Virus record (IMG/VR): IMGVR_UViG_3300031963_012969
Length of the DNA stretch: 64,000 nucleotides
Reading direction: 5' to 3' (one strand)
Source of the DNA: a virus
The translations under genes and the position numbers were made by a program. Under the pieces are notes generated by a model, which was given only the letters and a program-made list of their open reading frames with translations, was not told the origin of the DNA and searched no databases. This document shows positions 27,324 through 57,022 of the stretch, piece by piece (the stretch's first letter is position 1; each line of letters opens with the position of its first letter).

Positions 27324-30300
27324 TCAATCAAATGGATTCCACCATGATCCATTATTTTCTGTTTTGCTGTCTGCGCCCCCTTTAGAGCTTTTAGCGGATA
27401 TAGCTTTTTTATCTACTCCAAGCTTGTCTGCTATTCCCTCGAGAGCTCTTAATATTCTTTCTATGGCGTCTTTAGGATCGAAATCATTTTTCTTTTCCTT
27501 TTCCGTTTCTTCTCCCTGAAGCTTGACCTTTCCGCTCTCAAGCTCTTCAGATATTTTACTTTTCTTCTCTTCGAAAATTCTGTTTTCGTGTTCCTCTATG
27601 TATTTATTTCTTGTTTCTTCACTTAATTTGGTTCCAGTTTTTTCTAGTTTTCCTACTTCTTTAACAGCTTCTTCATGTGCCTCTTTTTTGGCTTTTTCAT
27701 GCATTTCAACTATTTTGCCACCTTTTCCAGTTACTAAATCTAGTTGAGCCTGGCCAATTTCTTTTTGTTTATCCGTCATTTTATCATAGTCACCTAAAGC
27801 ACCGCCAGCTGCCCTTGCAACACTCTCAAACGTGATTTGACCTTCTTCATTTCCCTCTTTCTTTAAGTCTTTGTAGACTTTAGACATTACGCCCATTGCT
27901 TTTTCGCCAATGTTAAAGTCTCTAAGTAATGGCCCCCTTGTTTCACTTACTTGTTTGACTTCTGCCTGAATTTCCTGTTGATCTTTCATCAACTCTTTTA
28001 TCCTAGCTGTAGCACCTTCATTTCCTGCAACTTCAAACGCTTCTGATAAATCATTGGTGTTAGCTGCAGACGTTAAGGTTCCCGATATTTCCTGTACTTG
28101 TTCTGCAGTTGCTGTAGGAAGTATCTCCGAGATTCTTTCCTTCATTCTTTTATCGTCGGTAATGTCTTCCTGTGTTATTTTACCCTCTTCTAGCGCTTCC
28201 CTTATTTTTGATGAACCTTCTGATCCTACGCCAGTCTCTGCTATTGTTCTTGCAAAAACTGAGTCTGCGTCCCTCGTGCCCATTATTGACTCTGATATAT
28301 ATTTGTATGTTGCCTTATTATTGAATTCTATGTCAGCTCCAGTTAGATAATCAAAGTAAGCCCCCTCACCGTATTTTGATTTTATTAACTTTAGTGTATT
28401 TTCTGATGCACCGCCCTCTTCTTCAATTTTGTTATCAAGTACGTCTATCATCAGATCTGTATTTTCATCTATTCTACCTGATTCAGCTGCCTCCTCTCTT
28501 ATTCGCCTGGCTTTTTCGAAGTCTTTATTTTCCATCGCTTCCTTCATTTCCTTTGCGACCTTGCCTTGTTCCCCTTCAGTCCCCAATACAGCTAATGCAG
28601 CAACCAGTCCTTGATTTTCTGATGATCTTGCTACCCTGCCTTGATATTCTGCTATCTTCACAGCCGTCTCTTCTGTAGATTTACCAGTGTATATCTCTTT
28701 TTTGTCTTGAGCGTCTTTTCTCCTAGCGTCTACTAAGCCCTTTGCAGCTATCAAAGCGTTTTGAGCCATGTTTGTCTGGTTTCCTCCCTTTACGCCCATT
28801 CCTTTATACATTTGATTTGTTACTTCAAAATATCTTGCTATTGCATCATTACTCATGTCCACTACTACAGCTGTTGCCTGTATTTTTTGCAACAAGTCTC
28901 TAACTTTTCCAGTAGACATTCCAGAAGACCCTTCAACTAAGTCACCTACTCGATCCATTAATTCCCCTAGCCCCGTGTCAGCTCCAAATACATTTTGCGC
29001 TTCTCTGATCATGCTATTTAGCTCGCTTAAATCTTGTCCTTTCTGGTCTTGTTCTTTTGCGTTTTGTGGTGTTCTGGGTTCTGAAATAGCTTGTAATCCA
29101 GAGCTGCTCCTAGGATTCATTATTTCATTTGCCAGTTTAATATCCTTCTCTGTTCCAAAATTTTTAATTGTCTGTATTTCCGTATTTCTGGCTTGTTCTA
29201 TTTTATCGTTGTTTTTTTGTACTATTGTTTGTGATTGCTGGTTTAGCTGTCTTACTTCGTTTTCTGTTCCAAGCTTTAAAGCTATTTTTGAAAATTGGTC
29301 TAATGTTGACCTAAGCTTTTCTTCCCCAGTTACTGAAACGGTGTTTGATTTTTGATTTGCACCTGTTTTCGTGTTATTTTCCTCTTGTTTCTTTGCTTTT
29401 GTCAAAGCCTCAACAGCTTCGGTGTAAGAAGATATTTCCTCCCTTTCTTTGTCTCCTATCTTTCCTTCTTTTTCTGCTCTTTCCACTATCCCTTTTACCA
29501 ATTTAGTAGGATCGCTTATGTCTATTTCCTTGTCGGAAGAAAACGTTGAAACATCGTCTTCCTGTATCCCAATCTTTTTCTTTATTTTGCCTGACTGCTT
29601 AGTGAACTCTTTCTTCTCTTGTTCCGTACCAATTAAATCAACGACTTCAGAAACATCATCTATTGTTTTTATTAAGGACTGATCATTTCTTCTTTTTACT
29701 GTTCCGGTGTCTTCTAACTCTTTTACTAAATTTTCTGCCTCTTTTACTTTTTCCTGTTTTGATTTGTCTTCCTTAGGTAATTCAGACTTTCTTTGCATTA
29801 CCTGTTTAACTATTTTAGCTGTATCTGTTAAATCGACCTTTGTTGATTCAAGTATATTATTTTTTTGCTCATCAAATGCTTTTTGTTCCTCGGGTGTTCC
29901 ATATTTTTTGATGGCAACTTCATATTCAGATAAATGACCATCAAGATCCTCGCCTGGGGCAGCAGTCACTCTATTGTTTACATCTTCTTCTTTTTGTTTT
30001 TCCTTGGCCGATGAAAGCGCATCTATGGCTTCATTAGCGTCATAATAATATGATAGTTCATTTTGATCTCTATTAGATATTAAATTGTTTTTTCTAGCCC
30101 TATCAATAGCATTTTTGGCTAAAGCCGTAGGTGTCGTTATATCTATGGAATTATTTTCTTTGCTGCTTAAAGGAGACTGTCTTTTTATCTCCATCATTTC
30201 TCGGTCAAATTTTTCTTTTTCCTCTGGTGAATCTAGACCACTAAGTAAATCATGGTCACCCCTATTAGAGTAATCTTGTTTAGGGGTCTTATTTTGTTGA

Positions 30301-33300
30301 TATAAATCTAAATCTCCTCTAAAAGAGTAATCTTGTTCAGGTGACTTATTTTGTTGATATTTTTTAATATCCTGTACCTTAGAAATAAACTGTTCTTTTT
30401 GCTCTGTGGTATTGAGCTTATCCATTATTTCGGGGAACTCTGAGCCTACGCCAATCTCTAGTTCTTTTTTATTATCAACCTTTAATTGATTAAGATTCTG
30501 TAGTTTCTCCTTGAATTTTTCCCTCTTTTCTGGAGTTAATTTTGTAATTACATCAGAAAACTCTTTTTCTGGTGTAATCTGCTTCTCTTTGCTTTTTCTG
30601 CCTGCGGCAGAACTAAATTCATTTAATCTTTCCTTAAATTCTTGTTTTTCTTGTGGTGTATTAAATGTTTCAATGATTTCAGAGAAATCTTTTTCTATTG
30701 TTTTTTCGCTTTTGGTGGGTTGATACTCTTTTGCTTTTTCCTCAATTCTTGACTTGAATTCATTTATCTCTTCTGGAGTTTTAAGTTTTTCAAGTACATT
30801 AGGAAACTCCGCCTCTATATCTATTTTTTCTTCTTCTGTTTTGCTAGAAGATCCCCTAAGTTTTTTTATTTTTTTCTTAAACCTCTGTTTATCTTCTGGT
30901 TCACTTAATTTATTTAATACACTAGAGAACCGTTTTTCTATTTCCTTATCTTGTTCTTCAATTCCAACCCCAGTTACTTCCTGTATTTTATTTTTAAAGT
31001 TCTCTATTTCTTCTGGATTTTTAAATTTTGATATTTCCTGACTAAATTCATTTTCAATCTTATTTTCAAATTTTTCCTCAGACTGAGATTTGAGTTTTTG
31101 TATTTTTGACTTAAACTCCACTATTTCTTCAGGTGTCTTAAGTTTATTTACCTCCTCCGGGAATTTTTCCTGTATTTCGGCGTCAAACTCTTTTTCTCCT
31201 GATTCCTGTAACTTTTGTACCCTATACTTAAACGACTCTTTTTCTTCAGGCGTTTTAAGTTCTCCTATTATGTCCGAAAAATTTGTTTCTATTTGTTGAA
31301 TCTGATCCTGTTCATTTGAATATTTTTTACCAGATGCTCTAACTTTTTGTAATCTATTTACTATCTTATTTTTTTCCTCTGGAGTCTTAGCACTTTTTAT
31401 TATGTCTGGGAAAAATTCTCCCTCTATTTCTCTTCTCTGTTCTCTGATTTTACTTGGCTTTACTTTCCTAATTTCTTGAACATTATCTAAAAATTTTTCT
31501 ATTTCTTCTGGGTTTTCTATGTCATTAAGTATGCTAGAAAATTCTTTTTTAGATTGTTGTCTCTCCTCTTGAGTATTTTCTGTTTTATCTTCCTCTCTTA
31601 GTTTTTGTACCTTATTTATAAATTCTTCTTTTTGTTGTGGTGTATCAAGTTTTTCTAGTACATCTGGGAATTCTTGAGTTATTTGTTGTTTTTGTTTTTG
31701 CTCGTACCTTGGCGATTCATATTCTTTTACTTCTTTAACCTTATTAAAAAACTCTTCTTTTTGTTCTGGCGTAGTTAGCTTTCCAATTATATCTGGAAAC
31801 TCTTTCTCTATTTCAATCCTCTGTTCTTTGGCACTATTTTGTTTATCTTTTTTTATTTCCTGTACTTTATTTATGAATTCTTCTTTTTGTTCTGGTGTAT
31901 CTAGTCTTTCTATTATGTTAGAAAATTCTCTATTAACCTGTTCTTTTTGCTGTATTAATTCTCGTGACTCAGACTCTCTGAATTTTTGCACATTTTGTAT
32001 AAATTGCTTTTTCTTCTCTGGAGTCTCTATTTTCTGGATTATATCCGAAAAATTACTTTCTACTTCTTTTTCTTGGTCCTGTATTTGATCAGTAAATGTA
32101 TATTTAGATTCTTTAAGTCTTTTCTTGAACTCTTGTTTTTTTTCTGGAGTTTCTATTGTATCTATGATGTCAGAAAATTCTGAGTCTATTTTAGAGTCTA
32201 CTGTAGACTCAACGTCATCAAATTTTTGATATAATTTGGACCCCTTTAGTTTCTGTATTTTTTCTGTAAAATTTTGTTTTTCTTCTGTAGTATTTAAATA
32301 TCGTATTTCATTTGAGAACTTAGACTCTATTTCTTTTACATCATTTTTATTTCTGCGCTCAGATGTATTGCTATCCTCATTTATATGAATTTTCTGTTCT
32401 TTATTTATTTTTTGTAATTCCTGACTGAATTGTTTTTTTTCTTCTTCTGTTCCGAATTTCTCTATTACGTTAGATAATTGATCTAGTGTGCTAGTGGCCT
32501 TATTCCTTGATTCTGTAGTTATTCTAGGCTGTGTACCTGGGGTCTTATTTATAGAGTTAAAAACCCTTGGATAATTTTCTTGTATGCTATTTTTCTCGTT
32601 TTCGTTTATTTTTCCTTGTCGCTCAGCCCTAGATAATACGTCTCTGACTAATTTTGATGGTTCTGTTATGTCTATCGACCTTTTAGATTGCTTGAGTATT
32701 GTTTCCTTTTGATTATTGAATGTTTCTATCTCTTGTTTTGTTCCATGCTTCTCTATAATTTTTTGTACCTGGTTTATAGTGGTATCCAGTTTTGGCGTAT
32801 CAGCGATTTCTACCGAAGATTCTGGTAAATATGGTGATTCGGTTCTAGTCCTTTTATCTATTTCTTTTATTATTCTATCTACTTTGTCGGTCTTATTTGT
32901 GACATTATTGGTATTTGTAACGTTATCTGTATTTGTGACATTATTGGTATTTGTAACGTTATCCGTATTTGTTACGTTATCTGTGCTCTTTGTAACGTTA
33001 TCCGTATTTGTTACGTTACTGATGTTTTCAGTGTTTTGTTGATTTAATGTGTTTATTGCTTCAAGTGCTTCGGAGTACTTAGATATTTCATCTCTGTCGT
33101 TGTCGCTTAGCTTTCCTTCTGTTCCGGCTCTTTCTATTACGTCTTTAGCTAATTTAACCGGTGCCGTTATATTTATTTTATTTGGATCTGTAATACCATT
33201 AGATAGAATATTTTGAGCTTTAGCGTGCTCTTTCCTAGCCTGGTCTATTTCTTGAGCCCTTTGCGGTGTGGGTCCGTATGGCAGTGATGGTCTTTTTAAT

Positions 33301-34022
33301 ACCTCTCCAGCTAATTTAGATAAATTACTATCTTTTGATTGCTGGGATCGATCAGTTATTTCGCCCATGAATCCGCCAAATTTTCTGTTAAATGCGGCCA
33401 TGTTTTGAAAAGTTTCCGCTCTACTAAATCCACGTGACTTTGAGTAATCCCAATTACCGTCCTTATCAGACATCAAATTGCTAACATTTCTTACTATGTT
33501 TGCGGCGTGTACAGCATTTGCCTCAGCGTTTCTTATGCCAGGTCCGGCCATATTTTCGGTAAAGTTACCCATTACAACACCAAAAGCATCTGTCATGCTT
33601 CCACCAGGAGTATATTGATCGGCAAACTCTTGAAATAATCTGTTTTGCCCTAAGTCACCTAATCCACTTAACATTGGATTTGCTGCCAATAAAGATGGCT
33701 TTGCTAAATCAAATACTCTGTGTCGCTCTTGCATTGAGGTGTACTGATAGTCGGACACAGAGGGCCTCTTGAAAGACCCAAGCATAGGTCTCCCGCCGTT
33801 AAATGATGACACCATTAAATTAATCATCATATCAAGCATCGGGTTACCTGTAGCGATTGATGAAGCTGGGGCAAAACCCCTATTTGCCTCATTTCTTGCT
33901 ATGTCTATGGGAGACATAGATGGATACCCATATGGTAGATTGATTCCTGGAGGTATTTGCGAGTTTAATCCACCAATTTCTCCAATTTGCCGCTGATTAT
34001 TCAATATATCGTATGGATTCAC
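27324..34022 (-). CDS. Tail tape-measure protein (2232 aa)
   Basis: Longest ORF, helical and repeat-rich, directly downstream of the frameshifted chaperone pair and upstream of hub/baseplate genes; GTG start. Confidence 0.8.
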   Translation of the reverse strand: MNPYDILNNQRQIGEIGGLNSQIPPGINLPYGYPSMSPIDIARNEANRGFAPASSIATGNPMLDMMINLMVSSFNGGRPMLGSFKRPSVSDYQYTSMQERHRVFDLAKPSLLAANPMLSGLGDLGQNRLFQEFADQYTPGGSMTDAFGVVMGNFTENMAGPGIRNAEANAVHAANIVRNVSNLMSDKDGNWDYSKSRGFSRAETFQNMAAFNRKFGGFMGEITDRSQQSKDSNLSKLAGEVLKRPSLPYGPTPQRAQEIDQARKEHAKAQNILSNGITDPNKINITAPVKLAKDVIERAGTEGKLSDNDRDEISKYSEALEAINTLNQQNTENISNVTNTDNVTKSTDNVTNTDNVTNTNNVTNTDNVTNTNNVTNKTDKVDRIIKEIDKRTRTESPYLPESSVEIADTPKLDTTINQVQKIIEKHGTKQEIETFNNQKETILKQSKRSIDITEPSKLVRDVLSRAERQGKINENEKNSIQENYPRVFNSINKTPGTQPRITTESRNKATSTLDQLSNVIEKFGTEEEKKQFSQELQKINKEQKIHINEDSNTSERRNKNDVKEIESKFSNEIRYLNTTEEKQNFTEKIQKLKGSKLYQKFDDVESTVDSKIDSEFSDIIDTIETPEKKQEFKKRLKESKYTFTDQIQDQEKEVESNFSDIIQKIETPEKKKQFIQNVQKFRESESRELIQQKEQVNREFSNIIERLDTPEQKEEFINKVQEIKKDKQNSAKEQRIEIEKEFPDIIGKLTTPEQKEEFFNKVKEVKEYESPRYEQKQKQQITQEFPDVLEKLDTPQQKEEFINKVQKLREEDKTENTQEERQQSKKEFSSILNDIENPEEIEKFLDNVQEIRKVKPSKIREQRREIEGEFFPDIIKSAKTPEEKNKIVNRLQKVRASGKKYSNEQDQIQQIETNFSDIIGELKTPEEKESFKYRVQKLQESGEKEFDAEIQEKFPEEVNKLKTPEEIVEFKSKIQKLKSQSEEKFENKIENEFSQEISKFKNPEEIENFKNKIQEVTGVGIEEQDKEIEKRFSSVLNKLSEPEDKQRFKKKIKKLRGSSSKTEEEKIDIEAEFPNVLEKLKTPEEINEFKSRIEEKAKEYQPTKSEKTIEKDFSEIIETFNTPQEKQEFKERLNEFSSAAGRKSKEKQITPEKEFSDVITKLTPEKREKFKEKLQNLNQLKVDNKKELEIGVGSEFPEIMDKLNTTEQKEQFISKVQDIKKYQQNKSPEQDYSFRGDLDLYQQNKTPKQDYSNRGDHDLLSGLDSPEEKEKFDREMMEIKRQSPLSSKENNSIDITTPTALAKNAIDRARKNNLISNRDQNELSYYYDANEAIDALSSAKEKQKEEDVNNRVTAAPGEDLDGHLSEYEVAIKKYGTPEEQKAFDEQKNNILESTKVDLTDTAKIVKQVMQRKSELPKEDKSKQEKVKEAENLVKELEDTGTVKRRNDQSLIKTIDDVSEVVDLIGTEQEKKEFTKQSGKIKKKIGIQEDDVSTFSSDKEIDISDPTKLVKGIVERAEKEGKIGDKEREEISSYTEAVEALTKAKKQEENNTKTGANQKSNTVSVTGEEKLRSTLDQFSKIALKLGTENEVRQLNQQSQTIVQKNNDKIEQARNTEIQTIKNFGTEKDIKLANEIMNPRSSSGLQAISEPRTPQNAKEQDQKGQDLSELNSMIREAQNVFGADTGLGELMDRVGDLVEGSSGMSTGKVRDLLQKIQATAVVVDMSNDAIARYFEVTNQMYKGMGVKGGNQTNMAQNALIAAKGLVDARRKDAQDKKEIYTGKSTEETAVKIAEYQGRVARSSENQGLVAALAVLGTEGEQGKVAKEMKEAMENKDFEKARRIREEAAESGRIDENTDLMIDVLDNKIEEEGGASENTLKLIKSKYGEGAYFDYLTGADIEFNNKATYKYISESIMGTRDADSVFARTIAETGVGSEGSSKIREALEEGKITQEDITDDKRMKERISEILPTATAEQVQEISGTLTSAANTNDLSEAFEVAGNEGATARIKELMKDQQEIQAEVKQVSETRGPLLRDFNIGEKAMGVMSKVYKDLKKEGNEEGQITFESVARAAGGALGDYDKMTDKQKEIGQAQLDLVTGKGGKIVEMHEKAKKEAHEEAVKEVGKLEKTGTKLSEETRNKYIEEHENRIFEEKKSKISEELESGKVKLQGEETEKEKKNDFDPKDAIERILRALEGIADKLGVDKKAISAKSSKGGADSKTENNGSWWNPFD
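30185..32335 (-). repeat. 16-17 copies of a ~41-aa repeat (E-x-x-F-[SP]-x-II-x-x-L-x-TPE-x-K-x-x-F) in the tape measure
   Basis: e.g. VNREFSNIIERLDTPEQKEEFINKVQEIK, IEKEFPDIIGKLTTPEQKEEFFNKVKEVK. Confidence 0.85.
30246..30359. repeat. Imperfect 57-bp tandem duplication (YQQNKSPEQDYSFRGDLDL / YQQNKTPKQDYSNRGDHDL)
   Basis: Two adjacent units 30246-30302 and 30303-30359. Confidence 0.85.
32895..33018. repeat. ~18-bp minisatellite encoding 7 NVT-containing units (NVTNTD-like)
   Basis: NVTNTDNVTKSTDNVTNTDNVTNTNNVTNTDNVTNTNNVTNK. Confidence 0.85.
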
Positions 34023-34079: not shown

Positions 34080-34445
34080 TTACTTCATGTCTGGGAACAT
34101 CTTTTTATATTCTTCTATTAACTCATCATTTGTTTTCATTTTCTTTGATTCTGGCTTAATAAGTTTTATGTATGGATAGCAAGATTCTATAAATTTATTA
34201 AAATTTTCTGTCCTATTTGAATTAGCTTTATTTATATTTTCTGGAGATATGAAATTCATTCCACCTAGAACACTTATCTTTGTTGTAAGTATCTCCATGT
34301 AATTTTCATGCTCTAATCCTCCACGAGCCATTTCAAGCCTAACTCTCTCGTAAAGAGAAGGCATGTCATCTGCAGACTTATTACCAGTCAAACCCCGCAA
34401 AAAGGCCTGTCTGGTTAGGAACCTTTTGCGGGTTTCGAAAAATTT
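34080..34445 (-). CDS. Tail assembly chaperone, frameshifted C-terminal part (lambda gpT-like)
   Basis: The -1 frame is open from 34448 to 34080 (FETRKRFLTRQAFLRGLTGNK...); reachable from the upstream ORF through the slippery site at 34439-34445. Confidence 0.75.
   Translation of the reverse strand, partial: KFFETRKRFLTRQAFLRGLTGNKSADDMPSLYERVRLEMARGGLEHENYMEILTTKISVLGGMNFISPENINKANSNRTENFNKFIESCYPYIKLIKPESKKMKTNDELIEEYKKMFPDMK
34390..34445 (-). promoter_or_regulatory. Programmed -1 ribosomal frameshift signal (A AAT TTT plus downstream stem-loop)
   Basis: In-frame X XXY YYZ heptamer at 34445-34439, then AAACCCGCAAAAGG...CCTTTTTGCGGGGTTT hairpin. Confidence 0.8.
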
Positions 34446-34972
34446 ACATCAAAAGCTTCTTTCGCAAGGTCATACAATTTTTGATTAAATTGTGTCATCA
34501 TTCCCATTAATATATATAAACTAGACGAAGATAATGAACCTACATAACTTTTATCTATAATCGCAAGTAAATTAAAGTCTTTCATTTCCCATACGCTTGA
34601 TGGGTATTCTTTTATTTGCTCCACCCCATTTACAGATGCTAACTGATAGTATAAGCATCCAAGATTAAATAAATTTATATATTCCTGAACCGAATACAGC
34701 AATCCATCATTATATATTTTGTCTACCTGTCTTGAGATAATATCAGTTTCTTTTTTTGTTTTATCCTTAAATTCTACATTAATTTTAAGTTTTTTGTTTT
34801 CAAATTTTTGCCTAAAAACATTTCCTGTTGCTAGGCACTCGGCATAAAGATCTCTATCTTTTTCCGTTATTTCTAGCCTAGGTAACTTAAGTGATGAATT
34901 AGCTGTTTCGTTCCCCTCTATCGTTGGGATAGCGGACTCTTTTATTGATTGTAGTGTTTCTTTTTGTTCCAT
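34415..34972 (-). CDS. Tail assembly chaperone (lambda gpG-like)
   Basis: 185 aa upstream of the tape measure, ending in a frameshift signal. Confidence 0.75.
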   Translation of the reverse strand: MEQKETLQSIKESAIPTIEGNETANSSLKLPRLEITEKDRDLYAECLATGNVFRQKFENKKLKINVEFKDKTKKETDIISRQVDKIYNDGLLYSVQEYINLFNLGCLYYQLASVNGVEQIKEYPSSVWEMKDFNLLAIIDKSYVGSLSSSSLYILMGMMTQFNQKLYDLAKEAFDVNFSKPAKGS

Positions 34973-37460: not shown

Positions 37461-37988
37461 TTAAGCTCCAGCAGCCAATGCAACAGATCTTGCATTAGTA
37501 GCCGAGTTTAATTCTTCATTAGGGTCTTTCTTGGGGACTGCTTCTTGCATAGCAACGAATGTAGCAACTAAGTTTTCTCTTATTAAGAGATCTTGAGTTG
37601 TCATCGAAACTCCGTATTGCGTAATAAACACGCCAGTAAGAGTTTTTCCTCTAAGCGTAGCGGATCCTTGTCCATAGCAACCAGAGGAAGCTTGAATGAT
37701 AACCGTGCCGCCACCTGCGCAAGAATTGAACAACGCTCTATCAAAGTCAACATTACTGAGGATTTTGCCCACAGTTAATTGACCTTGTGCACGCCCAAGT
37801 TGCATGTAAGCCGAATTTGATCCGAGTTCAAACAATTGAGTAACTTGTTGTTGATAACTGCACTCGACGTTTTGAACCAGAGCTCCAACACCAGATGCTG
37901 TTGTTCCCGACACAGTCATTACTGCTGTATCAGATGAGTAAACACCACCAACTGGTACTACTGTTCTTCCGAAAAGGTCATTAGCCAT
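37461..37988 (-). CDS. Tail tube protein, paralog B (with ~27-aa C-terminal extension)
   Basis: Highly similar to 38016..38462; FELGS...GRAQG tube-type motif; follows the sheath gene. Confidence 0.75.
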   Translation of the reverse strand: MANDLFGRTVVPVGGVYSSDTAVMTVSGTTASGVGALVQNVECSYQQQVTQLFELGSNSAYMQLGRAQGQLTVGKILSNVDFDRALFNSCAGGGTVIIQASSGCYGQGSATLRGKTLTGVFITQYGVSMTTQDLLIRENLVATFVAMQEAVPKKDPNEELNSATNARSVALAAGA

Positions 37989-38015: not shown

Positions 38016-38462
38016 TTATTCTTCCATGCTCGTGAACATTGCCACGAGGTTTTCTCTTATGAGAAGGTCTTGAGTTGTCATTGAAACGCCATACTGAGTT
38101 ACAAATACACCCTTAAGTGTTTTTCCTTTTAATTTTGAGCTACCCTGCCCCTGACAGCCGGATGAGGCCTGTATAATACAAGTTGCTCCCCCAGCGCAAG
38201 AATTGAACAATGCTCTATCAAAGTCTTGATTGCTAAGAATTTTTCCTATAGTCAAATTACCTTGTGCACGTCCAAGTTGCATGTAGACCTGATTAGATCC
38301 TAGCTCAAATATTTGGTTTACTTGTTGTGTATATGTAGCTTCAACATTTTGGACTAAGGCACCAGCACCTGAGCCAGCTGCCCCGGATACGGTCATTACT
38401 GCCGTATCCGAGGAGTAAACTCCGCCGACTGGTACTACTGTTCTTCCAAAGATGTCAGCCAT
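38016..38462 (-). CDS. Tail tube protein, paralog A
   Basis: 148 aa directly downstream of the tail sheath. Confidence 0.75.
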   Translation of the reverse strand: MADIFGRTVVPVGGVYSSDTAVMTVSGAAGSGAGALVQNVEATYTQQVNQIFELGSNQVYMQLGRAQGNLTIGKILSNQDFDRALFNSCAGGATCIIQASSGCQGQGSSKLKGKTLKGVFVTQYGVSMTTQDLLIRENLVAMFTSMEE

Positions 38463-43183: not shown

Positions 43184-43672
43184 TTATTTTCCTTGGTAAT
43201 ATTTCAATAATTCACCAATTTGTTGTATGTTCATTTGTGGAACACCTATCGACAACGCTGCAGCTTGTGCATTTTGTTTACTTTTCTGTAAGGTGTTTTC
43301 AACTTTGTCTTTGAATGACAATATAGGAATATTTTTATCTACATTAGCGTTCGCAACCTGCCTTGCAGCATCTAGTCCCGTTTGGAACAAAGAAGGGGCC
43401 GCCGCAGCACCTAGTCCGCCAACAACACCACCAGTTGCACCACCAAGCGCCATGCCCTTCAGAATTTGTTTAACTCTACTTTTTTTGTTTCCTTCTTTGT
43501 CGTATCCTGGGTCACCTGCTTGACTTATGCCACCGATAAGTGCACCGAAACCAGCTCCACCTGCTGCTGCAGCTGGAAGTCCTTTTACCACTGATTCGAT
43601 TTGATTGAATGGTTTATATTCATTGACGGCTTTCGACAATGAATCCATATACGTATTTGCGTATTTATTCAT
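43184..43672 (-). CDS. Putative internal head (cargo) protein with MNKY leader and glycine zippers
   Basis: MNKYANTYMDSL; AAAAGGAGFGALIGGI and GMALGGATGGVVGGLGA. Confidence 0.7.
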   Translation of the reverse strand: MNKYANTYMDSLSKAVNEYKPFNQIESVVKGLPAAAAGGAGFGALIGGISQAGDPGYDKEGNKKSRVKQILKGMALGGATGGVVGGLGAAAAPSLFQTGLDAARQVANANVDKNIPILSFKDKVENTLQKSKQNAQAAALSIGVPQMNIQQIGELLKYYQGK

Positions 43673-43683
43673 AAATTATTGTA

Positions 43684-44055
43684 TTATTCTCTATATAGAG
43701 GAGGTAAAAGTAAGCCACCGAGAGCACCAAGGCTGGCCCCACCTGCTATTCCTAGTGGGATAGAAACTGCCTGCACTCTTGCTTTTGGCATTCTCATTTC
43801 GTTAGCAAACGAAATACCACTTAATAAATTACCTCCATCTGAATTAGCTAGAGCAAAATCTCTTATTACACCAGAGCCCATTCCTCCAGCAAGTCCACCA
43901 GCACCAGCCCCAATTGCAGCCCCAGTAACCGTGTCCCTTAGCATTCGTTTGATTTTTTGAATAGTTGTTAATTTTTTTGTTTTATTTTCGGTAGAGGGTA
44001 GATCTTTTAGTTCTTCCCCGACTTTCTGTATATAAATGTTTGTATATTTATTCAT
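43684..44055 (-). CDS. Putative internal head (cargo) protein with MNKY leader and glycine zippers
   Basis: MNKYTNIYIQKV; GAAIGAGAGGLAGGMG and LGIAGGASLGALGGLL. Confidence 0.7.
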   Translation of the reverse strand: MNKYTNIYIQKVGEELKDLPSTENKTKKLTTIQKIKRMLRDTVTGAAIGAGAGGLAGGMGSGVIRDFALANSDGGNLLSGISFANEMRMPKARVQAVSIPLGIAGGASLGALGGLLLPPLYRE

Positions 44056-44068
44056 AAGTTATTTTATA

Positions 44069-44608
44069 TTATCCAAACCGCTTTTTAAAAGCAGCTAAAT
44101 TATTTACTGTTTCTGATCTATTGAATCCATGGGATTTTGAGTAATCCCATTGACCATCTGAACCAGCCATAGCTGAGTCCATACTATTTAAAAAGTTTTT
44201 AGACAATTCAGAATTTCTTTCCATGTTCTTTATTCCATACCCTCCAAGAGAGTTCCCCAGACTTGATTTATATGCATCAACCCTGCTTCCACCTGGAGTT
44301 ATTTTATCCAACAATGCTTGAAAAATAGTGTTCTTGCCTAATCTACCAAACATTTTTAGATTTGGATTTGAAGCTAATATAGATGGAATATTTTTACTGG
44401 CAATGCGCCCTCTAGCCTTCATTGACTCATAAGCGTAGTCAGAAACATTAGGTCTTTTCATTAATCCAAATTCTTGCAGCTTAGCATAAAGTGGAGATAT
44501 TTGTCCATGATTTGCTGGATTCCCGGCAGACACAAAAGACCTTGAGTGATCTAAATTTAACCCAGATTGGATTAATTCATTTAAGTAATTTTGTGAGTAC
44601 TTATTCAT
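44069..44608 (-). CDS. MNKY-leader protein paralogous to the tape-measure N-terminal domain
   Basis: KRPNVSDY, TPGGS, WDYSKSHGFNRSET match tape-measure KRPSVSDY, TPGGS, WDYSKSRGFSRAET. Confidence 0.8.
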   Translation of the reverse strand: MNKYSQNYLNELIQSGLNLDHSRSFVSAGNPANHGQISPLYAKLQEFGLMKRPNVSDYAYESMKARGRIASKNIPSILASNPNLKMFGRLGKNTIFQALLDKITPGGSRVDAYKSSLGNSLGGYGIKNMERNSELSKNFLNSMDSAMAGSDGQWDYSKSHGFNRSETVNNLAAFKKRFG

Positions 44609-45027
44609 TAAATAGAACTTATTATATGCTTGTACTCAATATTGTAAAAGTCAAAAATTTTTAAAGCTTCTTCGCTTCTTTGGTATACCTCTTTGTATAT
44701 AACTTTTTTTATTCCATGTGATGCTATATTCAATGCACATGCTGGGCACGGCATCAAGGTCGAGGCCAATAAGAAACCTTCTCCATTGTTTACGAGTGAC
44801 AATGCATTTGTCTCTGCATGTATTACCAATGGCAGTCGTTTTTCTCTGTCTTCCCAAAAATCATCTGGAGCTACCTTTCCTGGGGCTAAACCATTATAGC
44901 CAGTTGAAATAACTCTATTATTTTTATCAAGAATGCACACACCAACCCTTTTCCATGGATCCTCGCTTCTTGTTCTGGCGACCTCAGCTATTTGCAGTGC
45001 GTACTCTTCCCAATTAATTCTTTTCAT
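44608..45027 (-). CDS. dCMP deaminase
   Basis: RSEDP, TGYNG, HAE and PCPAC zinc-deaminase motifs; true start MKRINW at 45027 (the ORF-track extension lies inside a tRNA). Confidence 0.92.
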   Translation of the reverse strand: MKRINWEEYALQIAEVARTRSEDPWKRVGVCILDKNNRVISTGYNGLAPGKVAPDDFWEDREKRLPLVIHAETNALSLVNNGEGFLLASTLMPCPACALNIASHGIKKVIYKEVYQRSEEALKIFDFYNIEYKHIISSI

Positions 45028-45047
45028 TTTTGTTGTGTTGTGTGTTT

Positions 45048-45122
45048 TGGCATCTCCAAGGGGATTTGAACCCCTACTCTTTCCGTGAAAGGGAAAGGTG
45101 CTAACCATTACACTATAGAGAC
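45048..45122 (-). tRNA. trnE: tRNA-Glu (anticodon TTC)
   Basis: GTCTCTA/TGGAGAT acceptor stem, TTTCC-CTTTCAC-GGAAA anticodon arm, GGTTCAAATCC T-arm, encoded CCA. Confidence 0.92.
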
Positions 45123-45127
45123 AAAAT

Positions 45128-45202
45128 TGGAGCCGACAGTCGGATTCGAACCGACGACCAGCGGTTTACAAAACCGCTGCTCTACCTCTGAGCTATGTCG
45201 GC
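45128..45202 (-). tRNA. trnT: tRNA-Thr (anticodon TGT)
   Basis: GCCGACA/TGTCGGC acceptor stem, GCGGT-TTTGTAA-ACCGC arm, GGTTCGAATCC, encoded CCA. Confidence 0.95.
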
Positions 45203-45205
45203 AAG

Positions 45206-45281
45206 TGGTAGCGGGAGTGGGAATCGAACCCACCTAAAGAGGCTTATGAGACCCCCCAATTCGCCAGAATTGTATCCCGCA
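45206..45281 (-). tRNA. tRNA with CAT anticodon (Met, initiator-like 1:72 mismatch)
   Basis: TGCGGGA/TCCCGCT acceptor stem with U1:U72, loop CTCATAA, GGTTCGATTCC, encoded CCA. Confidence 0.85.
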
Positions 45282-45323: not shown

Positions 45324-45352
45324 AAAAAAAGAGGCGGCATTTCTGCCGCCTC
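45324..45352 (-). terminator. Intrinsic terminator after the major capsid gene
   Basis: GAGGCGGCA-GAAA-TGCCGCCTC followed by T7 on the minus strand. Confidence 0.9.
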
Positions 45353-45379: not shown

Positions 45380-46372
45380 TTAGAAGAATTTCGCTTTAGC
45401 CACACCAAATGGGTTACCGATAGAGGCACCAATCGAGGAGTAGATAAAGAACTCAACCATGAACGCACGACGATCAACAAACATAGTTGGTTGTTCGAGT
45501 TCGTAGAACTTGCCAAGGAATTGTGGCGCGGAGAAGTAATAAACTTCACCATCCTTAACGATGTCGTCCTTCATTGTGAAGAGGTGCTTATGGCCGAGAA
45601 GTGTAGTGGCCGAAAGACCGCCTTTGAACAACTCAGTCGAAAGATCACCGATATTGACGTGTTGGAACTTGAGGTACTCGCGTCCAGTATTAACATTCAT
45701 GACGATGAGGTCAGTGTTAAGACGGATAGGAGTTTGCTCAGCGCCGAGAACGCCACCACCAGGAGTAAAGCCTTTCGAGAGGATCTTTGTAGCCTCAACA
45801 AGAGATTCACGTGTCCAACCAGTGCTCACACCGAGTGGATTTCTGGAGGTATTCGTGAAGTCATAGTATTGAACCTTACCAGTAACAGGGCTGGCTGCGT
45901 TTCCAGTTGTTCCAACAATAGAATCAATTGTTTGGAAGAATGGAACGTCTTCAGCTGTCATGTGATCCTTAATCGCGTTTTCTTTGAACACGTTACGAAT
46001 ATCATAATCGTATTGCTCAAGTCTACGAACGTCTTGGAAGTAGCTTGGGCTAAGAATGCGAGCAAAGTCAACACGATATCTGTCGCCCTTCATGATACGA
46101 TTTTTAGGAAGTGTAGCAAAACCAACGCTCATCGAGAGTGGTTGCGAAACTTCTTTGTCAACGATCTTGACTGGCTCATCTGTATCGAGCTGCTTATCGA
46201 GCTCAGCGGCAGTGATTGTTTGAGGTGGGAGGATTTTACGAAGAAGACCCTCTTCACGGAGAGTTAAGCGTGTGAAGTCAGTTGCGACTTCAGCAGCCTT
46301 ATTGAGATCGTTCGAGGCGATCTTCTCCATGAATTTATCATTAATAAGTTTAGCTGGGATATTAGTATTCAT
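45380..46372 (-). CDS. Major capsid protein (HK97 fold, encapsulin-like size)
   Basis: 330 aa; LREEGLLRKILP start and terminal IGNPFGVAK; follows protease, scaffold and decoration genes; GGAGG RBS; terminator after it. Confidence 0.8.
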   Translation of the reverse strand: MNTNIPAKLINDKFMEKIASNDLNKAAEVATDFTRLTLREEGLLRKILPPQTITAAELDKQLDTDEPVKIVDKEVSQPLSMSVGFATLPKNRIMKGDRYRVDFARILSPSYFQDVRRLEQYDYDIRNVFKENAIKDHMTAEDVPFFQTIDSIVGTTGNAASPVTGKVQYYDFTNTSRNPLGVSTGWTRESLVEATKILSKGFTPGGGVLGAEQTPIRLNTDLIVMNVNTGREYLKFQHVNIGDLSTELFKGGLSATTLLGHKHLFTMKDDIVKDGEVYYFSAPQFLGKFYELEQPTMFVDRRAFMVEFFIYSSIGASIGNPFGVAKAKFF

Positions 46373-49145: not shown

Positions 49146-50474
49146 TTAATTCAACATGAAAGCATTGAATATTACATCATCATTAGCGGATATATCGTTT
49201 AAAGCAGCAACCTTGTAGGCTAGGTATTGTCTTACCATAGCACGAGACTCTGGCTTTATAGAAGTTTTTTTATCATTTAACTCCTCGTTGTAAAGAACTG
49301 CTTTTTTTATTTTTTCGTCCTGAACATCGGGAGACAAGATAAATTTGTTTATTTCGTTTTTTGTGTTTTGGGTAATGGAAGTATTCCCATTACAAGATGA
49401 ATCAAAATCATGAATAGATGCAATTTTTTCTAGATTAGAAGCCTCTTTCAACTCCAATCTTACACACTCACTTATCACATCCTCTGTTTCGTCTATTAAA
49501 TTTTTGAAATCATTAAATCTGGATCCAGAAGCAAGTTTATAAAAAACCCTAAACGGAAGTATAGATGCATTTTTAGATAAACAGCTAAACATATCTTTTG
49601 GGTTCTTTTTCTGTAGCTCCCTTATTGCAGACTCAGATAGATCTGTTTTATCTAAAACATTTTTAGGGGCATTAATGCCGACTGCATCAATATATTTTTG
49701 TATCTTAGATAGCTTTTCGGCTATAGCTAACTTCGGGGTAGATAGAATTCTGTTTTCTATTAATTCCGCTAATTCAGCCCCGCCCATTGGCTCACTTGTG
49801 TCAATACCAGCAATTTTAGCTAAATCCATAGCGATCATGTCTGCTCCGCGATCAACAAATGATATATCATTCCAATACCCATCTCTATTATATACAAAAC
49901 ATTTTCTTCCATCTGGCAATATCTTGTTTCTTCCAAATGGGTGAGGTGCCGCTTTTTTAACGTGAACACAGTATTCAGATGGCGCTTTACTTACATTTCC
50001 GCATATAGAACAAACATCATTATCACAATGCCACCCCATAGAAAACTTAACGTCTCCACCTCTTTCAACTCTACCAAGCCAATCAGCACACTTATCTATA
50101 TTAGCTGCAATAGCTAATTCTACTCTTCCCATTTTTTCGTTATAAGCAGATTTAATTACGTCTCCATCTCTCTGCTCATGTGGGACTTTACTATTATGAT
50201 GCCTGTATAATTTAGCTTTCTTCACGAAAGTTGGATGAGATTTTTTACAAACCTCCTCCTCAAAAGCATCAAAGTTTAAATTACTTCCAGTCTTCTCAAA
50301 TGACCCTAAAGCAATTAGATGAATTATAGCGTGATTTTTAATTGGCTCTATGTCTCCCCAGCTATGTCTAACAGACGAAGCTATCTTATCTCTCCTTTGT
50401 GGATCGTCAATTATTTGAACCAGATATTCTGCATCTGGATATTCGAATGAGTCGTTGAAAATTAATTTTCTCAT
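49146..50474 (-). CDS. Prohead maturation protease with Zn-finger insertion
   Basis: LYRHHN (His), FSMG (Ser), CSICG...CVH, DISFV...AD; position upstream of scaffold and capsid genes. Confidence 0.75.
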   Translation of the reverse strand: MRKLIFNDSFEYPDAEYLVQIIDDPQRRDKIASSVRHSWGDIEPIKNHAIIHLIALGSFEKTGSNLNFDAFEEEVCKKSHPTFVKKAKLYRHHNSKVPHEQRDGDVIKSAYNEKMGRVELAIAANIDKCADWLGRVERGGDVKFSMGWHCDNDVCSICGNVSKAPSEYCVHVKKAAPHPFGRNKILPDGRKCFVYNRDGYWNDISFVDRGADMIAMDLAKIAGIDTSEPMGGAELAELIENRILSTPKLAIAEKLSKIQKYIDAVGINAPKNVLDKTDLSESAIRELQKKNPKDMFSCLSKNASILPFRVFYKLASGSRFNDFKNLIDETEDVISECVRLELKEASNLEKIASIHDFDSSCNGNTSITQNTKNEINKFILSPDVQDEKIKKAVLYNEELNDKKTSIKPESRAMVRQYLAYKVAALNDISANDDVIFNAFMLN

Positions 50475-55281: not shown

Positions 55282-56121
55282 TTACCTTGTTCTTTTATTT
55301 CTGTTTAAGAAATTTTGATAATCTTGAATGTATCTTTTGTCGGCGTATATTTGATTTGGAGTTACATTTGAATTCTCTTTGTATATTTGTCTAACTATGT
55401 CAGCCCTTCTTCTATCTGCAACAGATTTAGAATTGTAGCTTCCCATGACTTTAGACAAAAAGGCATCAGTTGGACCAGTAGATGTATTTACTCCAGCAGC
55501 AGATTGTTGATCTTTCCTGACTGGCTGCGCTCTTCTTACTTCAACCATTCCGTTTGTGGTATTCATTTTTGGGGACGTACCCACTGCTTTAGGTAAAAAG
55601 CCAGGTGCATCGTTTATAGCGGAATTTATATTTGCCTCGTTCTGAGTATTATATTGCTGTGTAGCATTTTCAACTAAAGAAGACCCTGAATTTCCTCCAA
55701 AAAATGAAACAGCGCCAGATGGAAGATTCTTATTTAAGCTACCCTTCATTGGAGACGCATCTGCAACCGGTAAATTATTTTTGAGGTAATTTCTTCTTTT
55801 TTCTAATCTTTTATTTTCGAGTCCCATTATAGCGCCTCTTGCAGCATCAGTGGGGCTTTCTTTACCGTACAGGTTGTACGCAAAATCTCTTGCTTTTCCA
55901 AGCATAGTATCCGTTCCAGTAAGTTGATCATAGAGTCCAACTCCACCAGCTCCAGTAACAGCTGCGCCGCCAATTCCAGCCATTAGCTTAGGGTTAGAGG
56001 AAATAGCCCCTCTTGCAGCGCTTATGGCCGGAGAAATAAATGGTTTAGCAGCACTAAATATAGATGCTGTTTTGGCTTCTTTAGTTAATGTATTTTTATA
56101 TGTTTCGGTATATTTATTCAT
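55282..56121 (-). CDS. Putative internal head (cargo) protein with MNKY leader
   Basis: MNKYTETYKNTLTKEAKTA; GIGGAAVTGAGGVG. Confidence 0.7.
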   Translation of the reverse strand: MNKYTETYKNTLTKEAKTASIFSAAKPFISPAISAARGAISSNPKLMAGIGGAAVTGAGGVGLYDQLTGTDTMLGKARDFAYNLYGKESPTDAARGAIMGLENKRLEKRRNYLKNNLPVADASPMKGSLNKNLPSGAVSFFGGNSGSSLVENATQQYNTQNEANINSAINDAPGFLPKAVGTSPKMNTTNGMVEVRRAQPVRKDQQSAAGVNTSTGPTDAFLSKVMGSYNSKSVADRRRADIVRQIYKENSNVTPNQIYADKRYIQDYQNFLNRNKRTR

Positions 56122-56123
56122 AG

Positions 56124-56462
56124 CTAATTTAATGATGCAGTGGTTAAACCACTTAATTCTTGTAATCTATCTCTTAGCAATCTTGCATAATCAGACTGAA
56201 GGGATCTAGTAAAAACTGTATCTTTTTTAACGCCGTCTTCTAGTATCATGTCCTTTAGACTATTTGCGGTTCCGGTAATCTTATCTATTGGCTTAGTCAG
56301 GTCAATCATTTTTCCATGTGTTCTAGAGAAAATAGATTTAGGAGTATTTTTTACGGCATTATATGCGGTTCCAATAAGTTTAAGTGCCATATCACCTCTA
56401 CCAGCCGTTTTATTAAGCTCTATGTCAAGCCTACTCAAATATGTATGTGTATCTTTGTTCAT
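56124..56462 (-). CDS. Putative internal head protein with MNK(Y/D) leader
   Basis: MNKDTHTYLSRLDIELNKTA. Confidence 0.65.
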   Translation of the reverse strand: MNKDTHTYLSRLDIELNKTAGRGDMALKLIGTAYNAVKNTPKSIFSRTHGKMIDLTKPIDKITGTANSLKDMILEDGVKKDTVFTRSLQSDYARLLRDRLQELSGLTTASLN

Positions 56463-57022
56463 CTATATTTAATGCTTCTTATGTTTATGTCACTCCATAA
56501 ATTATTTTGAGTTTCGTCTTGATTTTGTGGCTGATCTCCAAATGCCGAATCAATACCTGTATCAATAGCGTTATTGATAGCCAATCCAGGTGTTGCAACA
56601 CCAAATACGGTTCCAATATCTTTAGCAGATATATTCTTGATTCCTCCCCTTTCCTTCGCTATTGCAGTGGCTGTGTTCCATGGCTGAGTAAATGTATTAC
56701 TCATTATCGACATTGCCTTATTTTTAATTGGCTGATTTGATTCTAATATGCCCCTATACCCTCTTGCCATTGATCCAATGCCTCCTGTAATTCCGCTACT
56801 TAGATTGCCAACGCTTTTTATTGTTTTTTGCGTTAATGGCTTTGCTGCACTAACGCCTTTTTGAATTGCGCTAGAAACTATTGGCTTGGCTGTATTTAAT
56901 AAATTTTTTACACCAGCGGAAACAATTGGTTTTGCTGCAGAAAATGCGGCCCTGGCGGCTGGCACCACAAATGCATTTTTTTGATTTAATTCATTAAAAT
57001 AGATTTTTGAGTATTTATTCAT
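56459..57022 (-). CDS. Putative internal head protein with MNKY leader
   Basis: Start re-called to 57022 (MNKYSKIYFNELNQKNA), 1 nt after the upstream stop; three AKP(I/L) repeats. Confidence 0.7.
   Translation of the reverse strand: MNKYSKIYFNELNQKNAFVVPAARAAFSAAKPIVSAGVKNLLNTAKPIVSSAIQKGVSAAKPLTQKTIKSVGNLSSGITGGIGSMARGYRGILESNQPIKNKAMSIMSNTFTQPWNTATAIAKERGGIKNISAKDIGTVFGVATPGLAINNAIDTGIDSAFGDQPQNQDETQNNLWSDINIRSIKYR

Follow-up and report, generated by a model that had tools for sequence, protein, structure and literature searches.

The stretch of viral DNA analysed here (IMG/VR record IMGVR_UViG_3300031963_012969; 64,000 nucleotides, called the window below) comes from an uncultured large freshwater phage, and the whole of it forms a minus-strand structural block of large myovirus-like type. 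We examined one gene of this block, P0001, the first of three small genes whose products start with MNKY. P0001 encodes a protein of 179 amino acids (aa), in which a short leader is followed by a free-standing copy of the N-terminal domain found in the tape-measure protein (TMP). The TMP gene itself, P0002, lies further downstream on the same strand. The parts of the two genes that enter the comparison are listed with the evidence for each.

44069..44608 (-): P0001, the free-standing copy, 179 aa, MNKY leader plus TMP N-terminal domain (open reading frame (ORF), homology, 14 orthologues, substitution rates)
44561..44608 (-): leader of P0001, residues 1-16 (MNKYSQNYLNELIQSG); no K-x-A in this lineage; helix predicted at residues 3-14, with a predicted local distance difference test score (pLDDT) below 50
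44504..44521 (-): NPANHG motif, residues 30-35, the first block common with TMPs (alignment and hhalign)
44072..44470 (-): core all-alpha domain, residues 47-179, with a C-terminal FG (BLASTP; AlphaFold2 (AF2) pLDDT 80-89)
27324..34022 (-): tape-measure protein P0002, 2232 aa, GTG start (gene context, length variation, chaperone pair)
33375..33968 (-): TMP residues 19-216, homologous to the free copy (BLASTP, hhalign; AF2 of TMP 1-221)
33798..33866 (-): hydrophobic or amphipathic helix present in TMPs only, at about residues 53-75, with an invariant Asp (alignment; 18-column gap in hhalign)
34080..34972 (-): tail assembly chaperone pair, a 185-aa ORF (34415-34972) and its -1 frame extension ORF (34080-34448) (slippery heptamer)

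BLASTP of P0001 against the 2232-aa TMP aligned residues 47-179 with TMP residues 81-216 at 46% identity and 65% positives (E value 3e-38). Profile-profile alignment (hhalign) of 14 free copies with 21 TMPs returned a probability of 100 and an E value of 2.4e-47 over 174 columns, and the matched span ran from residue 9 to 179 of P0001 and from residue 19 to 216 of the TMP. On these alignments P0001 is confirmed as a true paralogue of TMP residues ~19-216. An earlier note on this DNA had claimed a collinear alignment of the ORF with the N-terminal part of the TMP and had placed the homologous part at nucleotides ~33375-33870. Both E values bear out the alignment, and the nucleotide range is correct. 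Five of the six motif pairs named there are also rightly paired. The sixth, AGNP/TGNP, is out of register: A28-G-N-P-A-N-H-G of P0001 (AGNPANHG) aligns with A42-R-N-E-A-N-R-G of the TMP (ARNEANRG), the NPANHG block of the free copy corresponding to NEANRG at TMP 44-49, and TGNP (TMP 57-60) lies inside a hydrophobic segment that is found in TMPs and missing from the free copy. N30, A32, N33 and G35 of P0001 are invariant or nearly so.

The segment in question is a hydrophobic helix of ~20 residues that was present in 22 of 22 TMPs and in none of the 14 free copies; its D64 is invariant in 21 TMPs. Since the free copy lacks this helix, we regard it as a derived, trimmed form and not as a complete TMP tip. 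At the other end, the free copies stop with ...FG exactly at the domain boundary, and the TMPs run on as ...FGG, where that next G is near-invariant. Pfam and PHROGs gave no match for P0001, for the TMP or for the other leader proteins, and ESM Atlas was uninformative for P0001.

The assignment of P0002 as the TMP rests on its context, namely gene position, length variation and the chaperone pair. The gene follows the sheath (phrog_279) and two tube paralogues and lies directly downstream of the chaperone pair; a frameshifted tail-assembly chaperone pair upstream is a hallmark of TMP genes. The slippery heptamer A_AAT_TTT (34439-34445, minus strand) stands in the X_XXY_YYZ register within the last codons of the 185-aa ORF, and the -1 frame opens at the heptamer itself into the next ORF. 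The heptamer is kept in register in four relatives (L001, L008, L010 and L013). The lengths of TMP homologues lie between 766 and 2412 aa; the two ends are conserved and the middle varies. Searches with P0002, with its C-terminal 593 aa and with the minimal homologue P0022 found no Pfam (PhageMin_Tail, TMP_2) or PHROG TMP match; a language-model search with the TMP (ESM Atlas) gave a weak PhageMin_Tail lead (0.85).

In P0002 the middle holds an insert of ~1400 residues (~29100-33300, minus strand) made of Glu/Lys-rich repeats of ~40 residues with the pattern F-S-D-I-I-x-K-L-x-T-P-E-E-K, together with a short array of the hexapeptide N-V-T-N-T-D (DNA repeat 32894-33018). The repeats lie between the conserved N- and C-terminal parts, and insert-free homologues are only ~780 aa long. 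Given this insert-driven spread in TMP length, tail length may vary about threefold in the family.

The MNKY leader and the K-x-A motif

The leader of P0001 is not the only one of its kind in the window. ATGAAYAARTAY occurs five times against 0.23 expected, and all five occurrences are at the starts of minus-strand ORFs; a sixth gene, with the leader variant MNKD, starts at 56462. The other leader genes are as follows.

43684..44055 (-): MNKY protein 2, 123 aa, with a Gly/Ala-rich hydrophobic segment; variably present in relatives
43184..43672 (-): MNKY protein 3, 162 aa, with two Gly/Ala-rich segments; beside the free copy in all loci
55282..56121 (-): MNKY protein 4, 279 aa; leader followed by KEA and KTA
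56124..56462 (-): MNKD-variant protein, 112 aa; KTA at residues 18-20
56459..57022 (-): MNKY protein 5, 187 aa; KNA at residues 15-17

The six leaders have M-N-K-Y-x3-Y-x3-(L/V) in common, and that of MNKY protein 5 is closest to the free-copy leader (10 of 16 residues). The bodies behind the leaders are unrelated, every body-against-body BLASTP giving E > 0.7, and the isoelectric points (pI) of the six proteins are 9.6-10.1. Conserved leader residues are encoded by different codons among the paralogues, which rules out DNA-level conservation as the source of the likeness and therefore indicates selection on the peptide. The description of the leader as a portable module, given in the earlier note, is upheld by its presence on proteins with unrelated bodies and by the origin of the P0001 body in the TMP N-terminal domain. 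The comparisons support P0001 as a chimera of two origins, a leader and a TMP-derived body.

A short motif, K-x-A, is found at the leader end (residues 11-20) in the three genes upstream of the protease gene and in most leaders of relatives. Head-assembly genes contain it in excess: the prohead-protease-like gene (49146..50474) has 14 against 3.6 expected, and further head-assembly genes have 18 against 6.0, 13 against 3.8, 6 against 1.4 and 8 against 2.8 (z from 3.3 to 6.1). The capsid protein carries K-x-A at residues 17 and 25. Within the window, enrichment was seen in head-assembly genes only, and tail genes and the TMP showed none. From its enrichment in head genes, K-x-A is apparently the cleavage motif of the head protease.

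Two further leader-tagged genes were found at L017:5696-7228 (+), which is the 131-kb contig of L001 at ~109.7 kb. They encode a 77-aa protein with KLA and a 429-aa protein with KIA. Their neighbours are RNase H-like and ribonucleotide reductase genes, far from the structural block, and the body of the 429-aa protein had no Pfam match. The gene that follows the free copy in the most divergent lineage (L013:10516-11319 (+) / L016:37-594 (+)) encodes 267 aa; its N-terminus is acidic, and it has a hydrophobic Gly-rich segment and, internally, the sequence ...ME-NNKYANQF.... Two adjacent leader genes seem to have fused in it, which leaves the second leader internal.

Age, selection and predicted fold of the free copy

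A word-indexed search recovered 14 free copies of 179-183 aa that are 49-90% identical, all full-length and all starting with MNKY. An exhaustive HMMER search over 1.84 billion representatives gave 28 hits, comprising three free-standing clusters (P0007, P0014 and P0019), one odd 723-aa form and ~22 clusters of long proteins; in the latter, TMPs of 766-1579 aa, the domain lies at residues ~65-205. Free copies are known only from genomes with TMPs in one of two large TMP clades; roughly 12 TMP clusters fall outside this clade. In the eleven fetched loci, which cover three lineages, the free copy is always preceded by the capsid gene and metabolic genes, the latter a variable set, and is always followed by one or two more MNKY genes and then by head-tail genes. 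Its start, stop and length are conserved over the three lineages, down to 46% identity. The ratio of nonsynonymous to synonymous substitution rates (dN/dS) among free-copy orthologues is 0.07-0.14. Presence in relatives and dN/dS had both been proposed as checks in the earlier note, and the ratio is far from neutral.

The absence of a known family and of a fold match would suit a decaying duplicate, or a mis-called ORF without function. We give this explanation next to no credence: the full length is conserved in three lineages and dN/dS is far below 1, and these exclude it.

The free copy is 43-46% identical to the TMP of its own genome in the five genomes with both genes. Between genomes, free-free and TMP-TMP identities were 90.6 vs 88.1, 54.5 vs 50.4 and 48.9 vs 47.4%. 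A maximum-likelihood tree placed the 14 free copies on one side of a branch, with weak support (43/82), and they were never nested with the TMP of their own genome. The tree, the 43-46% identities and the co-divergence rule out recent duplication or gene conversion with the own-genome TMP; they point to a single duplication that precedes the split of the three lineages, after which descent was vertical, with no gene conversion. Judged by its conservation, P0001 is a functional, anciently duplicated gene under strong purifying selection. A recent capture of cargo by the leader, as had been suggested, does not stand, because the graft predates the three-lineage split, and copy and TMP have kept pace in their divergence since then.

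These figures also bear on a suggestion that the free domain is a decoy, which would titrate a host or prophage defence protein that recognises TMPs. Defences aimed at TMPs are known. At injection, SNIPE associates with the TMP of lambda (10.1101/2025.11.03.685801), and Tab works through the TMP to block tail assembly (PMC10884400). In such an interaction an exposed TMP domain could face competition from a soluble copy of itself. However, decoys are usually fast-evolving or patchy, whereas this copy sits at a fixed locus with the low dN/dS given above and diverges at the rate of the TMP domain. At 43-46% identity it would be a poor mimic of its own TMP, and the leader would be left unexplained. 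We consider a decoy role very unlikely.

AF2 modelled P0001, from a 36-sequence alignment, as an all-alpha protein with pLDDT 75 and a predicted template modelling score (pTM) of 0.69; over residues 34-179 the pLDDT was 80-89. The AF2 model of TMP 1-221 (pLDDT 66) showed the same order of elements, helices with a short hairpin before the last helix, the two models being compared by this order; the extra helix at 61-74 was poorly placed and of low confidence. Foldseek searches with the P0001 model against PDB and BFVD gave E > 1. The best Z in a wide VIA-align search was 4.8, below noise for helical models, and no completion protein was listed. Weak fold matches to lysozymes and transglycosylases were rejected, as the 36-sequence alignment has no invariant acidic residue.

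The residues invariant across both paralogues in this alignment are N33, R66, G88, Q97, G107, S108 and G161. That no acidic residue is among them argues for a binding module over an enzyme. Four basic positions, R52, R66, K158 and R164 (P0001 numbering), are conserved. The cores of the free copies carry net charges of +3 to +10 (mean +6.2), all with a pI of at least 9.2, and the TMP cores carry -3 to +5 (mean +1.5; Mann-Whitney p 1.4e-5, uncorrected for relatedness). All three free lineages are basic, and the P0001 core has a net charge of +10 and a pI of 10.0. The uniformly raised positive charge points to a DNA-associated role.

Where the free copy may act

The TMP of phage T4 is anchored by its C-terminus to the baseplate hub, and its N-terminal tip captures the genome end where neck and tail meet (PMC12929629). 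In 80alpha, as summarised in the same paper, the DNA end is corked onto the TMP by a completion protein; the T5 TMP extends with its N-terminus right to the top of the tube (10.1101/2024.10.16.618446). From its position, and by analogy with these systems, the parent domain in our phage would be the DNA-facing tip of the TMP. It resembles the tip of T4 gp29 (PMC12929629) in its place at the N-terminal end of the TMP, the end that is head-proximal and faces the DNA in T4 and the other phages studied, and four basic positions are conserved here. It differs in having no detectable sequence or fold relation to gp29, and T4 is without a known free-standing tip copy.

We read P0001 as a leader-addressed, DNA-associated protein of the virion interior that derives from the DNA-facing tip of the TMP and leaves with the genome, and we put the chances of this reading at roughly even. 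The MNKY leader would have replaced the first ~20 residues of the TMP, and the hydrophobic helix would have been deleted, giving a soluble, strongly basic, tagged domain of ~15 kDa in which the fold and the conserved residues of its surface are retained. The leader would form an amphipathic helix, one face of which bears Tyr4, Tyr8 and Leu12, and would steer P0001 into the assembling head, along with the other leader-tagged basic proteins. P0001 would stay with the DNA in the head and at infection would exit through the tail behind the TMP. Because the T4 TMP tip holds the genome end in the tail tube, the free copy probably retains the binding activity of the tip; the copy may act as a cap or pilot for a DNA end, or may dock such an end on the TMP tip. 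We infer head loading, ejection and DNA-end binding by P0001 on this basis.

N-terminal head-loading tags are established for the T4 internal proteins and P1 DarB (PMC9024508), and leader-tagged head cargo is already a known kind. The likeness to T4 IPI, IPII, IPIII and Alt and to P1 DarB (PMC9024508) lies in a short N-terminal leader on unrelated bodies, in genes placed around the head genes, in small and basic tagged proteins, and in a canonical leader that is followed by an apparent head-protease motif. There is no sequence relation to these proteins, however. The motif here would be K-x-A and not (L/I)-x-E, it is missing from the free copy of the window, and packaging is something that we infer from the genes. 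The cargo also differs, being a copy of a tail-protein domain; such cargo is not known for T4 or P1. In a literature search we found no account of a TMP tip domain as head cargo, nor of an MNKY/K-x-A tag. The T4 DNA-end protector gp2 and the Mu N protein are carried in the virion and ride genome ends into the cell. A basic, head-loaded copy that holds a DNA end could work alike, as a functional analogy only and without homology.

The odd 723-aa form mentioned above (P0018) is the product of the free-copy gene at locus L011:10001-12172 (+). Its residues 1-165 are identical to the normal copy at 156 of 165 positions, and the last helix resumes in frame (14 of 15 identical). Between them, in the loop before the last helix, is an insert of 544 aa that constitutes a complete SNF2-family helicase core (PF00176, PF00271; phrog_62, E value 2.8e-50) with motifs I, II, III and VI intact. 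Helicases of this family are frequent in large phage contigs, and their N-terminal extensions there are of many different kinds. The P0018 cluster is a singleton, found in three source collections. The variant does show, as far as its sequence goes, that a surface loop of the tagged domain can take up a large DNA enzyme, and a folded insert of ~60 kDa suits head cargo better than a fixed part of a ~4-nm tube.

This last point bears on a different placing of P0001, as a component present in few copies in the innermost channel of the head-tail junction, paired with the TMP tips. There it could fill a 3-to-6 symmetry gap, or could sit as a cork between DNA end and TMP, as in 80alpha. The gene does lie between the capsid and the head-tail joining genes, the usual place of completion proteins. 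Both paralogues keep the same invariant positions (N33, R66, Q97, G107, S108 and G161), as for a common partner or mutual packing, and the free copy and the TMP co-diverge. Lambda gpZ is a tail completion protein. Like gpZ and the 80alpha completion protein, the latter as far as its published summary describes it, P0001 is a small protein encoded between head and tail genes that could act at the DNA-TMP junction. Unlike P0001, completion proteins are not known to be TMP paralogues or to carry a common leader, and the searches gave no fold or sequence match. A neck or tube-top partner would leave unexplained why the leader is common to five unrelated basic proteins, three of them with K-x-A sites as in head proteins, and the helicase-bearing variant is hard to fit into the tube lumen. 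Moreover, the hydrophobic helix that was lost is a likely anchoring or oligomerising element, and its loss argues against the free copy assembling like a TMP subunit, an extra subunit of a TMP-derived channel having been proposed in the earlier note. We therefore rate this placing as unlikely.

The loss of the helix is easier to accommodate if P0001 acts outside the virion, as an intracellular regulator or chaperone of tail assembly. It could occupy a partner of the TMP tip (the tube terminator or a chaperone) until the TMP is due, or could shield the tip itself. A domain-only paralogue without the anchoring helix is the classic design of a competitive regulator, and the gene sits among late genes. 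In such a factor, however, the leader and the high positive charge would have no role, and a frameshifted chaperone pair already adjoins the TMP gene. We find an assembly factor distinctly improbable, below the neck placing.

Several observations weigh against P0001 as a DNA-associated protein loaded into the head. No relative of the predicted fold could be recognised, and the structure therefore offers no hint of function. The TMP domains are not uniformly basic, and DNA binding by the TMP tip in this phage is therefore an analogy with T4. P0001 and its two MNKY neighbours have no K-x-A after the leader, the sole K-x-A among the three being K3-Y-A5 within the leader of the 162-aa neighbour, so head-protease processing is not predicted for the free copy of the window lineage. 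In favour of a link to head maturation, on the other hand, the gD orthologue (L013, the most divergent lineage) reads MNKYANFYFSTVTQ-KLA-ENPANHG, with ...TQKLA directly before the conserved domain. Its leader and KLA suggest that the ancestral free copy was probably a standard leader-tagged protein and that the window lineage lost the motif. The two leader-tagged genes of the 131-kb contig lie among nucleotide-metabolism genes, and the tag is therefore not confined to the structural block. The helicase variant is single and recent, selection has yet to test it, and it therefore proves little. Finally, the nearest cultured phage, Arash, is without MNKY leaders, and no cultured relative was found.

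We also entertain a wider version of the head-cargo reading, which we hold to be doubtful. A general N-terminal tag (MNKY-x3-Y-x3-L, canonically with K-x-A) would load arbitrary proteins into the head, among them a second DNA-holding tip of the TMP. The head and tail copies would cap or join genome ends at ejection, and large enzymes, the nested SNF2 helicase for example, could enter the host on the DNA with the tagged domain as their carrier.

Long-tailed phages still pose the question of how genome ends are held, released and protected, and the T4 study of the TMP tip gripping the DNA end dates only from 2026. A separate, tagged and more basic copy of the tip is a natural dissection of tip function: the domain can be made, bound to DNA or to its paralogue, and located in particles without the 2232-residue protein. 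If the leader is a packaging tag, it would be a compact tool to load proteins into phage heads, and the helicase variant hints that the tagged domain is already used in nature as a carrier. Should P0001 not be in the virion, the recruitment of a tail ruler domain as a soluble factor would still be unusual.

Gene setting and minor features

The genes of the window are transcribed in the order RNA-polymerase beta-like, head-assembly genes, protease-like, capsid, three tRNAs with dCMP deaminase, the three small MNKY genes, head-tail genes, sheath, tube, chaperone pair, the 2232-aa protein, baseplate genes and fibres. The features around the free copy and among the head genes are as follows.

49146..50474 (-): prohead-protease-like gene (442 aa); weak matches to phrog_18299 and phrog_2774
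45380..46372 (-): major capsid protein (330 aa); weak match to phrog_2522; 329-343 aa in all loci
45331-45352 (-): strong intrinsic terminator directly 3' of the capsid gene; 9-bp GC-rich stem and T run
45048-45281 (-): three tRNA genes (Glu, Thr, Met), 3' of the capsid gene and 5' of the free copy
44608-45108 (-): dCMP deaminase, long ORF, likewise between capsid gene and free copy

The long deaminase ORF overlaps the tRNA-Glu gene, and the true deaminase start is therefore probably an ATG near 45030. The deaminase stop and the ATG of the free copy have one base in common (TAATG). A sigma-70-like promoter match (11 of 12 positions) lies at 44621-44648 on the minus strand and ends 13 bases before the free-copy start. 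It is merely recorded here, because sigma-70-type promoters in the region are not above chance (14 vs 17.2 expected). The upstream motif AAGTTCTAWTT was not enriched either (4 matches vs 7.6 expected).

Megablast and tblastn searches for cultured relatives with P0001 and the TMP C-terminus returned nothing. The sheath alone reaches cultured phages, namely Salmonella phage Arash and three Vibrio phages, at 26-29% identity. Arash is the nearest of them (29% identity, sheath only), and its gene order differs.

The two tube-like paralogues stand in tandem at 38016-38462 and 37461-37988 on the minus strand and encode 148 and 175 aa. In the close relative L001 the pair measures 149 and 179 aa, with N-termini that are almost the same, and in some more distant relatives only one tube-like gene is seen.

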